From positions 1-27,427 of the forward strand of contig JAHJLO010000041.1 in NCBI GenBank assembly GCA_018821685.1: a DNA stretch of 27,427 nucleotides. Reading direction: 5' to 3'. The notes below the pieces were generated by a model. It did not search any database, was not told where the DNA came from, and saw nothing but the letters and a program-made list of their open reading frames with translations. Positions 11,204 to 17,410 of the stretch are shown in pieces. Numbering within the stretch: the stretch's first letter is position 1; the number at the start of each line of letters is the position of its first letter. This stretch comes from Patescibacteria group bacterium. GTDB lineage: Bacteria; Patescibacteriota; Minisyncoccia; Phycocordibacterales; UBA12079. Both the position numbers and the translations under genes were made by a program.

Positions 11204-11276
11204 GCGCACGTAGCTCAGTTGGTAGAGCTCGGAGCTTATACCTCCGCGGTCCCAGGTTCGAGTCCTGGCGTGCGCA
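11204..11276 (+). tRNA. tRNA-Ile(UAU), CCA not encoded
   Basis: Acceptor GCGCACG/CGTGCGC, D-arm GCTC/GAGC, anticodon arm CGGAG-CTTATAC-CTCCG (TAT at 11237-11239), T-arm CCAGG-TTCGAGT-CCTGG, discriminator A. Extended -10 TGgTATACT at 11179-11187. Confidence 0.95.
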
Positions 11277-11489
11277 CAAAAATAAAAACTCCAAAGCGTC
11301 TAGCTTTGGGTTTTTATATTTTTGTAGTGCACGCCAGGACTCGAACGGCGGAGGCGGTACACAAGATAAGTTTTTGTGTAGAGGAGTGAAACAAAAACTT
11401 AGGCTTGTCGCCGAGCCGCGTCCAGCAGTACTTAGGCTTTTGGAGTCCGTAGGACGAACAAAAGACTTAGTAACTGCGGGACGAGTCCT
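11277..11489 (+). repeat. Structured tRNA-3'-end element, unit 1
   Basis: Long A/T hairpin; inverted tRNA 3' end (11327-11346, 19/20); P1 GGC-GGA..GA-GCC (11347-11417); P2 (11420-11482); terminal GAGTCCT. Confidence 0.8.
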
Positions 11490-11727
11490 AAATATTTGTG
11501 CGCACGCAGTAAAGTGCCTGCGCACTTTACGTCAGGACGAGAAAGGCGGAGGCATGTTTTCGGAACGCGACATTATTTTCTTATGAACGAAAGTGAGTTA
11601 GAAAATAAGAAGTACTCTTGTGGTGAAGTGGAGAAAACAGCCGAGCCGTGACGACAGGTTCTTAATAAAAATGAGTTGGAGCGAAGCGGAGACGAAATTT
11701 TTATTAAGAAACCTGAAGTCGAGTCCT
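11490..11727 (+). repeat. Structured tRNA-3'-end element, unit 2 (variant with a hairpin inserted in the inverted end)
   Basis: TTTGTGCGCACG + 9-bp/4-nt hairpin + GTCAGGACGAGAAA; P1 11545-11647; P2 11650-11720; terminal GAGTCCT. Confidence 0.75.
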
Positions 11728-11919
11728 CCGCACAAAAATAAAAACTCAAAGCGTTTAGCTTTGGGTTTTATATTTTTGTAGCGCACGCCAGGACTCGAAC
11801 GGCGGAGGTTCTTTTCCGTAGAGAAGAGGAGGAAAAGACCCAGCCGCGTCCAGCAGTACTTAAGTTTTTGAAGTCCCGAAGGATGACAAAAGACTTAGTA
11901 ACTGCGGGACGAGTCCTGG
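11728..11919 (+). repeat. Structured tRNA-3'-end element, unit 3
   Basis: Near-copy of the unit 1 hairpin; inverted tRNA end 11781-11800 (20/20); P1 11801-11845; P2 11848-11910; terminal GAGTCCTGG. Confidence 0.8.
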
Positions 11920-11979
11920 TAGTCCCACACACATTTTTAATTTAGATAGACTAAAGAATTTCAATCTTAGAGTACACAC

Positions 11980-12021
11980 AAAAAATAAAACCTGAGCCAA
12001 AAAACCCAGGTTTTATTTTTT
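11980..12021. terminator. Bidirectional intrinsic terminator
   Basis: AAAAAATAAAACCTG/CAGGTTTTATTTTTT inverted repeat downstream of the ASCH gene. Confidence 0.7.
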
Positions 12022-12041
12022 TATATGTACACCAATAAAAT

Positions 12042-12365
12042 TTATACCAACTCAAACTTAATCACCTTCACAGGACTATTTTCGTCAACTTCTTGTTTGT
12101 AATATCTTGAATAAGTTTCATACATTTCTTTCTCTGAATCAAATTTCTCATGACCATCCCAGTCATTTGCGGTAAGATTTCCGAAGGTTGTTTCTCTTGT
12201 ATCAATAATCTTCACTTTTAGAAATTCCTCCCCTGTCTCCCAAACAATAAAAAGAACCTCATCACCAACAGATAATTCCTTATCATCAAACAAACGCCAA
12301 GTGGTGTTTTTATCGCCTGACAAAATTAATTCGCTTAATTTTTTTCTAAATTTTAAAGTTTTCAT
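12042..12365 (-). CDS. ASCH-domain protein
   Basis: MKTLKF..I.SG.K.TT.R..D...VGD.V.F motif (GxKxxxxR) of the ASCH/PUA-like superfamily. Confidence 0.8.
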   Translation of the reverse strand: MKTLKFRKKLSELILSGDKNTTWRLFDDKELSVGDEVLFIVWETGEEFLKVKIIDTRETTFGNLTANDWDGHEKFDSEKEMYETYSRYYKQEVDENSPVKVIKFELV

Positions 12366-12368
12366 TTT

Positions 12369-12812
12369 TTATTTATTTAAATAACTACTAGTCGTAGCTT
12401 CCCCATTATTCCAACCGAATCCCCAGCCCCAGGGCCATGGAATTAAAGAATTAAAACTCCGACCTCCTGCACGAACACCTAAGTAAACAATACTCCCCAT
12501 TCCCGGCAAAACACCATTAACATCATCGCGAAGCCTTAAATCAGCTAAATCCCTTTCTTCTTCGGTACCCCCTACCCAATATTGAATGTCATGTTCGATA
12601 CACTTATCTTGCCAAGAATAATTTAAAAGTGAATCTGGCCATAAAGTGCAACCGTCTGTTTTAAATTCTTTTGGAGGCAATTTTTTGTCTCCATTTACTT
12701 CTTTAGCGTGTTCTTGAATTTGATCTATATTTTCAGAAACAGGAACCCTATCCCAACAAATTAAACCAAAAAGTAAGAAAATTAATACTGCCTTTATAAT
12801 ATTTTTTTTCAT
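12369..12812 (-). CDS. Membrane-anchored/secreted phospholipase A2-like fold protein, paralog 2
   Basis: FKTDGCTLWPDS..W..C.EHD..YW.GGT.EER..AD; CxxHDxxY is the PLA2-type catalytic motif; N-terminal hydrophobic helix. Confidence 0.6.
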   Translation of the reverse strand: MKKNIIKAVLIFLLFGLICWDRVPVSENIDQIQEHAKEVNGDKKLPPKEFKTDGCTLWPDSLLNYSWQDKCIEHDIQYWVGGTEEERDLADLRLRDDVNGVLPGMGSIVYLGVRAGGRSFNSLIPWPWGWGFGWNNGEATTSSYLNK

Positions 12813-15306: not shown

Positions 15307-15416
15307 CCCGTTAGAGATACGAAATATTTACATATCCATATCTAATTAATTGTTAAGTATCTTTTTTATTTCCCGTGTTCTATTTATCTCTAACGGGATT
15401 CATGTTGTTTATTATA
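15305..15416 (-). promoter_or_regulatory. ftsH 5' leader: -10 box, leaderless 7-codon uORF and 15-bp stem over the ftsH start
   Basis: TATAAT 15416-15411; ATG 15403 begins MNPVRDK*; perfect inverted repeat 15399-15385 / 15319-15305 overlaps the ftsH ATG (15306-15304). Confidence 0.6.
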
Positions 15417-15477
15417 CATAAAGAGAGTTAAAACAAAAAGCAAAAATATAACCTTAATTTTATTAAATCAATATTTT

Positions 15478-15507
15478 AAAAGGCTACTCGCAAGCAAGTA
15501 GCCTTTT
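15478..15507. terminator. Intrinsic terminator
   Basis: AAAAGGCTACT/AGTAGCCTTTT after the 15528 ORF. Confidence 0.75.
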
Positions 15508-15527
15508 TCCTAGACAAAATGACCTAA

Positions 15528-15932
15528 CTATTTTTCAGGCCTTACAAAAAGAAAGCCCCGATCACACGGGTGAGCTTTTTCACAAAAGAAACACATTTCA
15601 GGACAGAGAACCCAAGATTTTTTGGTTTTTGGACCTCTGAAACATAAATCTCCTCTTTTAGGTAGTTCAGAATCTTCGAGCCACCGTCCAACAGCAATTT
15701 CCCTGGTTATTGGGTGTTCTATTTCAGTTGTAGTTAAAACTCTCTTTTTTTCAGGTCTGATCCATAAGACGTGTTTTGTTCCAAGTACTGATCCTGGACA
15801 AGGACAATCTTCCCAGTCTTTGGTAGATGGATATTTATCGGTAGATTCCAAGATATCGCCCTCTTCCAAAGCATACCCAGAAACAATTTTTTTTGTTACA
15901 GGGTGTTTATATTCTTTAGATTTTTCCTTCAC
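15528..15932 (-). CDS. Hypothetical protein with an internal two-fold repeat
   Basis: SD GGAGG before GTG; halves HP.T..I..G..LE...D...W..CP...RPEK occur twice. Confidence 0.65.
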   Translation of the reverse strand: MKEKSKEYKHPVTKKIVSGYALEEGDILESTDKYPSTKDWEDCPCPGSVLGTKHVLWIRPEKKRVLTTTEIEHPITREIAVGRWLEDSELPKRGDLCFRGPKTKKSWVLCPEMCFFCEKAHPCDRGFLFVRPEK

Positions 15933-16023
15933 AGATTTTCCTCCTTTTTTTGTAAACTTAAATTAGTAACACATTCCTACCCACAATATACAAAAAATAC
16001 TCAATAAATGCTAGTATTTGGGT

Positions 16024-16473
16024 ATGCCAACTTTAATTAGAAATAAAAAAGCGACGTTTAATTACGAAATCTTAGAAAAATTCGATGCAGGAATCGAGCT
16101 TTTTGGTTTTGAAGTAAAAAGTATTCGAAATAAACATGGAAATATTGAAGCGGGGCATATCACAGTAAGAGGTGATGAAGTCTTTCTTTTAAACACAAAT
16201 ATTCCTCCCTACCAACCTGCAAATGCACCTGATAGTTATGACCCAGAGAGAAATCGTCGTTTGCTTTTAACTAAAAAAGAGATTAGCAAGTTAGCAGGAT
16301 TAGAAGCAAAGAAGGGATTGACAATCATACCTATTTCAATGTATACTAAAGGCAACAAAATCAAGGTTGGAATAGCGGTTGTAAAGGGAAAAAAGAAATT
16401 TGATAAGAGAGAAAGTATTAAGAAAAAAGATACCCAACGGGATGTCGACAGAGAGATTAAAGGGAGATTTTAA
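16024..16473 (+). CDS. smpB: SsrA-binding protein SmpB
   Basis: NKKA.FNYEILE.F.AGIEL.G.EVKSIR, R.R.LLL.K.EI, GKK.FDKRE; adjacent to ssrA. ATG 16024 lies 6 nt after TGcTAGTAT. Confidence 0.97.
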   Translation: MPTLIRNKKATFNYEILEKFDAGIELFGFEVKSIRNKHGNIEAGHITVRGDEVFLLNTNIPPYQPANAPDSYDPERNRRLLLTKKEISKLAGLEAKKGLTIIPISMYTKGNKIKVGIAVVKGKKKFDKRESIKKKDTQRDVDREIKGRF

Positions 16474-16628
16474 GACAAAAAGTTGATATTTGTGAAAAAT
16501 ATATAAGTTCGTTGAAAATTTAATTACTGTCATTCGCTTGCTACACCTAATCATACTCGTCTTGCTTGCAATTCGGGACAAATATTTTGATTGGCTTCGG
16601 TTTAATCTGAATAGAATGGGTGTAGCAA

Positions 16629-17175
16629 GGGGGTGACAGGCTTAGACAGATAAACTAATTTTTATATGTGCAAAGTCGAACTGAGTAATTCGTAAAAAGG
16701 CTCAATAAAGATAAGTGCAAACTTGTCACAAAAAGCAAAGGCTGTGGTTTCACCATATTTCGCTTTTGCTCCAGCATTAGCTTAGTCTAAACTGGCGGTC
16801 AATTTCGCTGCTGTTTGATAAGCAAATTGATTGTTATATTCTTCAAACTAGGATTTAAGAATGTTTCGGCTTATTTCCGAAGTCAAGAAAATCGGATTTT
16901 TAAGGTTTTGTTTATTTAAGAGCGTGTCCAAAAGCTTGCTTCTGAGGATATTTTACCAAATTTTGATCGAGATGAAATAAAAAATTTTAAGGAATATTAA
17001 TATATTTCGAGAAATTTTTTACAAATCTTCGGGCGAAATTTGGAGAAATAGAGCCAGAATGAAGTTTCTGGACACGCTCATACTTAATAATCTTAAACAC
17101 CAAACAAATAAAATATACTTTGTAGACTCATTTAAAAACTTTATTTGGACGCGAGTTCAACTCTCGCCACTTCCA
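16629..17175 (+). ncRNA. ssrA: tmRNA, unusually long (547 nt)
   Basis: 5' GGGGGTGAC pairs with CACTTCC-A (17168-17175); GGAC-GCGAG-TTCAACT-CTCGC T-arm; helix 2 CAGATAAA/TTTATTTG and TGCAAAGT/ACTTTGTA; pk1-like CGAA/TTCG + TGAG/CTCA; tag frame 16717-16785 ANLSQKAKAVVSPYFAFAPALA*. Confidence 0.92.
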
Positions 17176-17410
17176 CAAATTATAAAAGACGCCAGTTCGT
17201 AAGAACTGGCGTCTTTTATAATTTGTGGAAGTGGAGAAAGCAAACAGTTTTGCTTTCGTCGAGAGTTGAAAGGCGGAGCATGTCGCACGCAAGTGATTTT
17301 CTCTTCCAAGGAGAAAATAACGAGTACGACAGCGAGCCGGGGTAGCGAACACTTAGGCTTTTGGAGTCCGAAGGACGAACAAAAGACTTAGTGATTCGTG
17401 ACCGATTCTC
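17176..17410 (+). repeat. Structured RNA-3'-end element, tmRNA copy (unit 4)
   Basis: Perfect 32-bp palindrome 17167-17234; 9-bp/4-nt hairpin; GTCGAGAGTTGAAA; P1 17272-17338; P2 17341-17403 (42-bp core 41/42 identical to unit 1); terminal GATTCTC. Confidence 0.8.

Follow-up and report, generated by a model that had tools for sequence, protein, structure and literature searches.

Tyrosine-integrase islands and prophages of the T-loop sublocation class, with their integrase-less cis-mobilisable derivatives, target the genes for transfer RNA (tRNA) and transfer-messenger RNA (tmRNA), and their direct repeats run from the T-loop to the 3' end of the gene, which stays intact as a result. The RtT repeats behind tyrT of Escherichia coli likewise each end in a tRNA 3' terminus, whereas the RAYT-mobilised REP, BIME and REPIN repeats are not tied to tRNA ends. 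The window analyzed here is the whole 27,427-nt stretch of contig JAHJLO010000041.1 (assembly GCA_018821685.1) from a Patescibacteria group bacterium, and it carries four structured non-coding units, three behind a tRNA-Ile(UAU) gene and one behind the tmRNA gene. Our reading, held tentatively and at somewhat less than an even chance of being right, is that these units are non-autonomous DNA repeat elements seated at tRNA and tmRNA 3' ends, folded in the sense strand, anchored on the T-loop and with arms homogenised to the host. The window is contig C63 of the source genome (G000; 792 kb, 132 contigs, 88% complete). The FtsH of this genome has its closest matches in metagenome-assembled genomes labelled Paceibacteria, Taylorbacteria and Nomurabacteria, all Parcubacteria of the candidate phyla radiation. 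For comparison, 61 genomes of the order (18 in the same family) and 150 sampled elsewhere in the class were screened with a covariance model, R1, made from 27 copies of the source genome, and 31 stable RNA 3' ends in that genome were used as candidate hosts for arm matching. Related genomes are labelled G001 to G015; G001, G003, G005 and G006 are among the congeners, and the G005 genome is closed.

The four units were found at the places given in an earlier note on this DNA, each folding as a three-way junction of stems P0, P1 and P2. P2 measures 63, 71, 63 and 63 nt and P1 about 73, 101, 46 and 67 nt in the folds of units 1 to 4, respectively, and P1 of unit 2 is long because a 58-nt hairpin is nested inside it. 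The general order consists of the host segment from T-loop to 3' end (X), a terminator-like hairpin, an inverted X, P1, 1–2 nt, P2 and a direct X. The order proposed earlier is in place but had omitted the terminator-like hairpin between the host gene and the inverted copy; the inverted copy itself is present but had been drawn too short, as it extends from the discriminator back to T54 or G53 and takes in the entire 3' strand of the acceptor. The GAAC/GAAA sequence, previously taken for a separate linker, is the complement of T-loop positions 54–56, sometimes also 53, and is therefore part of the inverted copy. A small hairpin splits the inverted X in many units. It lies no more than about 3 nt from the acceptor/T-stem boundary in units 2 and 4, exactly at that boundary in the tRNA-Ala unit and within about 3 nt of it in the tRNA-Leu(caa) unit. 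The direct X starts with ...C|GA(N)TC, corresponding to C56|N57 of the T-loop, with no linker after P2. This linker-free junction is seen in about 17 of the 21 units with a parsable fold. The junction is C|AATTC at tRNA-His, and a C|AA junction is also seen at tRNA-Leu of G013. At most loci of the source genome the direct copy reaches the discriminator and is followed by another terminator-like hairpin and then by the next unit, as read from a listing of the flanks.

The earlier note had described a family of four elements. The family is real, structured and non-coding, but it comprises 37 copies in the source genome rather than four: BLAST, iterated nhmmer and R1 each recover about 37, and all 37 R1 matches are full-length with one order of parts. 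The matches cluster directly 3' of tRNA and tmRNA genes, as had been anticipated: 22 of the 37 have an identified host RNA gene on the same strand within the preceding 1.5 kb, and all 22 share its orientation. One more host tRNA was missed by ARAGORN and found by Rfam. First units start 49–104 nt past the gene, and later units follow as arrays. Using the flank listing, we counted a unit or a remnant at 22 of the 31 stable RNA genes found; the unit-free genes are those inside a tRNA cluster, those encoding CCA and three others. Orphan units keep tRNA-like arms, which on contigs C129, C101 and C42 match tRNA-Ser 3' ends. The units are 130–260 nt long, have more than 20 different hosts in this one genome and occupy about 1% of it.

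The fold is supported by significant covariation, also as anticipated. Among the 27 aligned copies, 41 of 50 pairs show compensatory changes, and none of 500 shuffles reaches the observed values; paired cells amount to 82.7%, compared with 64.3% after shuffling and 37–48% with the partners slid. RNAalifold alone recovers P2, with 14 of 18 pairs compensatory. P1 was poorly aligned by MAFFT, and a count of G:U versus A:C pairs was replaced by per-copy energy, z-score and loop-motif tests. The motifs CTTAG...TTAG and GGCGGAG...CGAGCC and a GA/GAA loop are conserved across the order. Most units enclose no open reading frame (ORF); a single insert between units, roughly 590 nt with an 83-aa ORF, lies on contig C35. 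Behind full units there are at least seven half-units, each made up of the 3' half of P2 and the 3' arm, and several of these begin at or near the GAA bulge of P2. Arm-only remnants occur at tRNA-Lys(ttt), tRNA-Gly(tcc) and tRNA-Phe, the first with a 19-nt perfect inverted copy and no core. In the window only the tRNA and the tmRNA reach the Rfam 15 gathering score, and at E values up to 10 over 11100–17600, with RtT included in the search, the units give spurious miRNA-hairpin matches alone. The literature searched, including recent preprints on tRNA mimics and noncoding sequence space, contains no description of the unit family, in agreement with the earlier note, which recognised no named family matching it. 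Hammerhead, group II domain V and k-turn readings of the P2 GA/GAA loop were rejected by eye, as core nucleotides are missing and no model matches.

In the window, the first host gene is tRNA-Ile(UAU) at 11204–11277 on the plus strand (ARAGORN; Rfam RF00005, 70.9 bits), and the segment copied into the arms runs from its T-loop to its 3' end, at about 11256–11277. The next feature, a hairpin at 11278–11327 with complementary A and T tracts (inverted repeat I14), is terminator-like on both strands and lies at the center of a palindrome whose two sides are the tRNA 3' end and the inverted copy. Unit 1 on the plus strand begins with its 5' arm at 11328–11345, an inverted copy of tRNA positions of about 54–73 with a 2-nt deletion. 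Its core at 11346–11482 (P1 11346–11418, P2 11420–11482) is supported by folds, covariation and an R1 score of 134 bits, and its 3' arm, GAGTCCT at 11483–11489, is a truncated direct copy of the T-loop and T-stem with a C|GA junction to P2. The 5' arm of unit 2 (11498–11546, plus strand) comprises the inverted acceptor (11498–11507), a small hairpin (11508–11532) and a degenerate inverted T-arm (11533–11544). The core of this unit, from folds and R1, spans 11545–11720 on the same strand, with P1 reaching to 11647 and P2 at 11650–11720. The 3' arm GAGTCCTCCGCAC, a direct copy with an internal deletion, and the second terminator-like hairpin that follows it occupy 11721–11779 (plus strand; repeat families D3, D4 and D15) and jointly copy the tRNA end and its trailer. 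Unit 3 at 11780–11933 (plus strand) has an inverted arm at 11780–11799 that matches the host at 20 of 20 positions, P1 at 11800–11845, P2 at 11848–11910 and a decayed direct arm at 11911–11933. The oldest remnant, at 11963–12024 on the plus strand (repeat family D3), consists of a tRNA 3'-end copy with 65% identity and a terminator, and abuts the convergent gene. The displaced 3'-end copies of this array decay with distance, at 82%, 72% and 65% identity. The second host gene, the tmRNA at 16629–17178 (plus strand; Rfam RF00023, 68.3 bits; also placed by ARAGORN), has the T-arm GCGAG-TTCAACT-CTCGC. The 5' side of its unit, at 17179–17271 on the plus strand (inverted repeat I2), consists of a hairpin (17179–17224), the inverted acceptor (17225–17234), a small hairpin (17235–17260) and the inverted T-arm (17261–17271). 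The core of unit 4 and its 3' end lie at 17272–17410 on the plus strand, with P1 at 17272–17338, P2 at 17341–17403 and a fossil 3' arm, GATTCTC, at 17404–17410. No recombinase gene and no ORF were found inside the window units. The UAU anticodon of the tRNA-Ile is unusual for bacteria, and the same gene is present in G005 and G006.

The arms are 17–22-nt copies of adjacent DNA that pair with each other, and they follow the local host as predicted: of 22 arms of each kind, 20 inverted and 15 direct ones have their own host as best or tied best match, where about 0.7 matches would be expected by chance among the 31 candidate 3' ends. Where the host has changed, the inverted arm has changed with it. 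In G006 the tRNA-Ile acceptor has become CATGTGC and the inverted arm of its unit has changed likewise, and in G002 the tmRNA end CATCTCCAC, its own changed acceptor, is mirrored in both arms. At the tmRNA of the source genome, the claim that both outer arms track the host holds for the inverted arm GAGAGTTGAA, which follows the new T-loop TTCAACT, but not for the direct arm GATTCTC, which keeps the TTCGATT-type state still present in congeners; P0 of this unit survives through two G:T wobbles between the arms. The inverted arm prolongs the palindrome formed by the terminator of its host. The arm states in these species indicate that this arm evolves in step with the gene across that palindrome and that the direct arm is a lagging fossil. 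The proposal of a retargetable scaffold with guide-like arms is not supported by these observations, as the arms are copies of adjacent host DNA, evidently copied from the host and not programmed. In E. coli, quasi-palindromes are known to mutate by templated correction, and such correction together with selection on the tRNA would yield the observed arm behavior. P1 and P2 types are shuffled among orthologous tmRNA units, which confirms the tmRNA unit as a chimera. A reading of the inverted copy as the primer-binding site of a retroelement was discarded, as the copy complements the genomic trailer and not the CCA end.

Matches to R1 are found in 49 of 61 genomes of the order, including 18 of 18 in the same family (7–35 matches each), and, outside the order, in 29 of 150 genomes drawn from the rest of the class. 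In coding DNA, congeners share only about 72% identity with the source genome; their units nevertheless score on R1 as well as the source genome's own, and the consensus is therefore conserved. Empty sites are present in related species, as had been anticipated, at tRNA-Ile(UAU) in G005 and at the tmRNA in G001 and G003. Three units follow tRNA-Ile(UAU) in the source genome, one in G006 and none in G005, where a plain terminator comes next and then the same convergent gene as in the source genome. The oldest remnant in the window lies where this plain terminator lies in the empty site, and by position and a shared A-tract its terminator may correspond to that of G005, with hairpin stems that differ. 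At the tmRNA, the source genome, G002, G005 and G006 are occupied, and the unit-free sites show a graded palindrome, with no extension in G003 and 7 nt in G001. Occupancy differs between congeners, so that no tRNA depends on having its unit. The same array, with no visible polymorphism, is present in the Logan contigs of two DNA runs, although rare variants would not appear in such contigs.

The units are bounded by direct repeats of the tRNA 3' segment and the gene is restored, as in tRNA-targeting integrative elements. Tandem copies that are gap-free and 100% identical occur at tRNA-Leu of G013 (2 × 220 nt) and at tRNA-Val of G015 (2 × 197 nt), and in G009 both tRNA-Phe and tRNA-Lys have 100%-identical tandem copies in which the repeat includes the last 19–20 nt of the tRNA; the tRNA-Phe copies are separated by an N-run and their identity may be partly an assembly effect. 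In perfect tandem arrays the repeat unit starts in the tRNA T-loop. Duplication thus appears to be ongoing, with a phase that starts in the T-loop.

The tRNA-sense strand folds more stably than its complement in 35 of 36 copies (mean difference 10.8 kcal/mol) and in 36 of 36 with DNA parameters. The effect is smaller after a dinucleotide-shuffle control for composition, with z-scores of -5.1 for the sense strand and -4.4 for the other (25 of 36 copies, p = 0.012). The clearest signal comes from the loops: the sense strand of the units contains 52 mini-hairpins of the form N-C-GNA-G-N', at 17 times the density of the genome, whereas the opposite strand contains 1, and a count of loop motifs showed no enrichment of GNRA or UNCG loops in the units. 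DNA mini-hairpins of the GCGNAGC type have extraordinary stability, the related GCGAAAGC form is much less stable when made as RNA, and the natural examples are single-stranded DNA signals, namely the phage G4 origin, ssiA and the hairpin promoters of phage N4 (PMC13037366). In the window, units 1 and 3 come after terminator-like hairpins with T-runs; similar hairpins were read by eye at most other loci of the source genome, and a scan of the window found no promoter-like site at the units. The strand asymmetry, the C-GNA-G loops and the preceding terminators without a promoter therefore lead us to favor a single-strand reading at the DNA level, with RNA still a live rival.

A site-specific process on such loops is suggested by the nested 58-nt hairpin of unit 2, which is inserted on the plus strand at C|GAAG in the apical loop of P1 (11567–11624). 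This hairpin, GCGACATTATTTTCTTA...CTTGTGGT, has nine copies in the source genome that are 89–96% identical, one in the window and the others on contigs C14, C22, C35, C42 (twice), C43, C74 and C120. Six copies could be aligned at both ends, and each of these is bordered by C (G in one) on one side and G(A/T)A on the other, in at least four loop contexts: the P1 apical loops of two types, the P2 apical loop and the GA/GAA bulge of P2. Logan contigs of the copies without the insert skip the hairpin, which looks younger than its host units. From these insertion sites, the half-units and the C|GA(N) junctions, we infer a nicking-joining activity on single-stranded loops.

On our reading of the units as DNA repeat elements, each would consist of a replacement host 3' end from C56|N57, a terminator-like hairpin, the inverted copy of the same 3' end, P1 and P2. 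Insertion or duplication at the T-loop, suggested by the start of the perfect-array repeats in that loop, would leave the gene intact and displace the old 3' end downstream, where it would decay. The direct repeats would permit unequal or slipped recombination, giving either tandem arrays or a precise loss that restores the empty site. Two processes would keep the arms in line with the host: templated correction of the quasi-palindrome across the hairpins, and selection acting on the tRNA gene. A nicking-joining activity at C|GNA in single-stranded hairpin loops would move the nested 58-nt hairpin and would probably have founded the units.

Several observations weigh against this reading. The conservation of the consensus across the order points to purifying selection, which would fit a cellular or RNA function equally well. 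No pair of units within the source genome exceeds 88% identity, and there has therefore been no recent burst. The first gain of a new host's arms by a unit is a step that the reading has to suppose. In the closed G005 genome neighboring units alternate in strand, so that orientation follows the tRNA and not replication, unlike typical HUH elements. In the G013 array no terminator separates the tRNA from the units, and co-transcription is therefore possible there. No enzyme is linked to the units among the families searched, and the correlation with one recombinase or HUH gene that had been suggested was not found in the order-wide comparison. Of the 61 genomes, 57 encode a Xer-like tyrosine recombinase, on contig C73 in the source genome, regardless of unit presence. 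Y1 (RAYT-like) genes are found in 45 of 61 genomes; Y1 and units occur together in 40, units alone in 9, Y1 alone in 5 and neither in 7. In G009, which has 20 units and the perfect duplicates, there is no match to Y1, reverse transcriptase or serine recombinase. Finally, the two full-domain (group A) RAYT-like genes of the source genome are flanked by a REP-like dyad of their own in inverted orientation; three group B Y1 paralogues lie on contigs C102, C86 and C28.

The RAYT-like genes were rejected as partners on the weakness of the association, which is confounded by phylogeny since the genomes are not phylogenetically independent, and on the presence of their own REP. This dyad, AAA(A/T)GG(G/T)GTCAG(C/T)CACC(A/T)TTT, has 13 copies in the source genome in a classic REP/RAYT arrangement; two lie in the window at 5018–5065 and 7316–7363, bracketing a convergent gene pair, and others are on contigs C83, C60, C89, C27, C99 and C104. 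Three of the 13 lie within about 300 nt of tRNA-unit arrays, and examination of the flanks of the five RAYT-like genes of the source genome, which the NCBIfam RAYT model matches below its cut-off, showed nothing unit-like near any of them. Reverse transcriptase was rejected as a partner, as a check of five family genomes did not find it in G005, G009 and G012, all three of which have units, and serine recombinase was rejected in view of its absence from G009. Two large serine recombinase genes of the source genome (C35:91–1749 and C74:207–1792) run into the CCA-encoding tRNA-Leu(tag) and tRNA-Ser(tga) genes, which bear no units and are read as island attachment sites; this occupation may be why these tRNAs have no units. 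The source genome also has seven Resolvase-domain matches, one of them in the window at 2931–4253, and four reverse transcriptase genes, which is many for 0.8 Mb.

The strongest of the rival explanations, in our judgment unlikely but to be taken seriously, is that the units are RNA modules: tRNA-like small RNAs of an RtT-like design, co-transcribed with the host by read-through. The processing alternative in the earlier note stays alive in this form. The paired arms would mimic the acceptor/T-stem minihelix of the host, with the same 3' strand and discriminator, and each unit would be released by RNase P with RNase Z, or by RNase III cutting a P0 of roughly 20 bp, as an RNA with its own function or as a control of tRNA 3' maturation. 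The extended P0 does correspond to a 7-bp acceptor plus a 5-bp T-stem, and the optional small hairpin branches from the 5' strand close to or exactly where acceptor and T-stem meet, a layout like that of a real tRNA. The units share the orientation of the tRNA with the sense strand as the folded one, P0 at the tmRNA is maintained by G:U-type wobbles, the sequence is conserved across the order, the G013 array is free of terminators between tRNA and units, and the tyrT RtT repeats provide a precedent for the design. Against this, terminator-like hairpins with T-runs stand before units 1, 3 and, by eye, most other units of the source genome, with no promoter-like site; the C-GNA-G loop tips are of DNA type and not GNRA or UNCG; occupancy varies among congeners; the half-units, nested insertions and module shuffling resemble the behavior of DNA repeats; and no Rfam match, RtT included, was obtained at E values up to 10.

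Quite improbable is the explanation that the units are miniature integrative elements of cis-mobilisable type, moved in trans by a tyrosine recombinase with a crossover in the T-loop, the enzyme being either the Xer-like protein or a second paralogue of roughly 285 aa and P1/P2 forming an attP arm structure. The direct repeats from T-loop to 3' end, the tandem stacking, the tRNA and tmRNA targets and the empty sites in congeners would all be accounted for, and tyrosine recombinase, present in 57 of 61 genomes, is the sole recombinase family detected in G009 among those searched. This explanation is difficult to reconcile with the lack of an integrase gene in or beside the units and with a recombinase presence that is the same with or without them. 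A classical attP has no need of an inverted target copy or of covariation within the strand, the core is never flipped between the inverted sites (one orientation in 22 of 22 hosted units), and more than 20 target sequences would each require a matching attP.

The least probable explanation dispenses with dedicated machinery and has terminator hairpins grow by fold-back or template-switch errors while modules accrete and recombine, with an outcome that is neutral or mildly useful, for example as fail-safe bidirectional termination; the graded stages (none at the G003 tmRNA, 7 nt at the G001 tmRNA, 19 nt at tRNA-Lys(ttt) of the source genome and full units elsewhere), the host-tracking of the arms as predicted by quasi-palindrome correction and the lack of an enzyme that correlates with the units are in its favor, but simple fold-back cannot yield a three-way junction with a fixed P1-then-P2 order, the motifs CTTAG...TTAG and GGCGGAG...CGAGCC and the GA/GAA loop are conserved across the order, and the nested hairpin inserts site-specifically at C|GNA in the fully aligned copies.

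A number of other observations were made at stable RNA genes of the source genome. At C77:3250–3700 a disrupted pseudo-tRNA-Ser(gct), with a roughly 190-nt insertion in the D-loop, a replaced T-loop and a unit behind it, lies upstream of the intact tRNA-Ser(gct). At C129:4690–4790, near C129:3215, at C42:3420–3520 and at a related locus on C101, a promoter-like TTGTCA...TAAAAT is followed by a repeat of roughly 90 nt, GCACGAGGATCC...GGTTCCAGCCCGAGGTTGCCCGCA; a hairpin and then units with tRNA-Ser-matching arms come after this repeat, which has no Rfam match, and GCACGAGG recurs just past two of these arrays. At C39:470–575 the tRNA-Arg(cct) gene has no unit and is followed by a partial direct duplicate of its T-arm and acceptor 3' strand, GCCGGTTCGATTCTTGCCAGGGGCAC, which looks like an attR-type scar. 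A gene for a 314-aa tyrosine recombinase (C116:8034–8994) lies about 370 nt from the unit-free tRNA-Thr(cgt), whose T-loop is TTCAAGT, and is probably part of a conventional integrated element.

The genomes of Patescibacteria, also known as the candidate phyla radiation (CPR), are among the most streamlined known, yet about two thirds of the stable RNA genes here (22/31) bear units, and the family spans the whole order and beyond. If mobile, the units would offer a route to target essential tRNA genes harmlessly, with target arms that adjust themselves; if RNAs, they would form a host-matched family of tRNA mimics. It is conceivable, if on balance doubtful, that they represent a new class, either of elements with a conserved single-strand fold that use C|GNA nicking-joining at the T-loops of any tRNA-like gene, rebuild the host 3' end, acquire their arms automatically and depend on an enzyme not yet tied to mobile DNA, or of host-matched tRNA-minihelix RNAs. 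In practice, the units probably fragment metagenome-assembled genomes, several being found at contig ends (for example C121, C103/C22 and C42), and they can confuse the annotation of tRNAs and pseudo-tRNAs.

When compared with known systems, the units share with the tRNA- and tmRNA-targeting integrative elements their targets, the direct repeats from T-loop to 3' end, tandem stacking, displaced older 3' ends downstream and empty sites in relatives. In contrast to those elements, they are only 130–260 nt long, have neither integrase nor cargo, carry an inverted copy of the target, form a covarying single-strand three-way junction and occupy more than 20 hosts per genome. Guide-RNA scaffolds such as the IS110 bridge RNA and the omega RNA of TnpB and IscB are also constant scaffolds flanked by sense and antisense segments that match a target, but the units have no adjacent recombinase or nuclease gene and no Rfam match, and their arms pair with each other instead of forming loops that read a distant target. 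Like RtT RNA (RF00391), whose 178-bp repeats lie behind E. coli tyrT, the units stand in tandem behind a tRNA with repeats that end in a copy of its 3' end. There is no sequence or model similarity between the two, however; RtT lacks the inverted copy and is confined to one operon in enterobacteria, whereas terminator-like hairpins, scanned for in the window alone, precede most units of the source genome. The non-autonomous PATE of IS200/IS605 type insert 3' of a fixed short target on one strand, with an orientation biased by replication; the C|GA(N) junction would fit this, as would the C|GNA site of the nested hairpin, but the strands of units alternate in G005, and Y1 is not required, as indicated by G009. 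The REP/BIME/REPIN repeats resemble the units in being short, hairpin-forming, non-coding, multi-copy, strand-specific and located behind genes or terminators. Unlike the units, they do not copy neighboring sequence; furthermore, the group A RAYT-like genes are flanked by a different dyad and the unit-bearing G009 has no Y1 match. Integron attC sites are likewise imperfect palindromes that fold as single strands, have covarying stems and form arrays, with a conserved core at the base, where strand exchange would occur. The units differ from attC in that no IntI/attI partner was identified, in a generic PF00589 search alone with no IntI/attI-specific search, and in that the window units enclose no ORF, have arms copied from the host and two hairpins, and form an array anchored on a tRNA.

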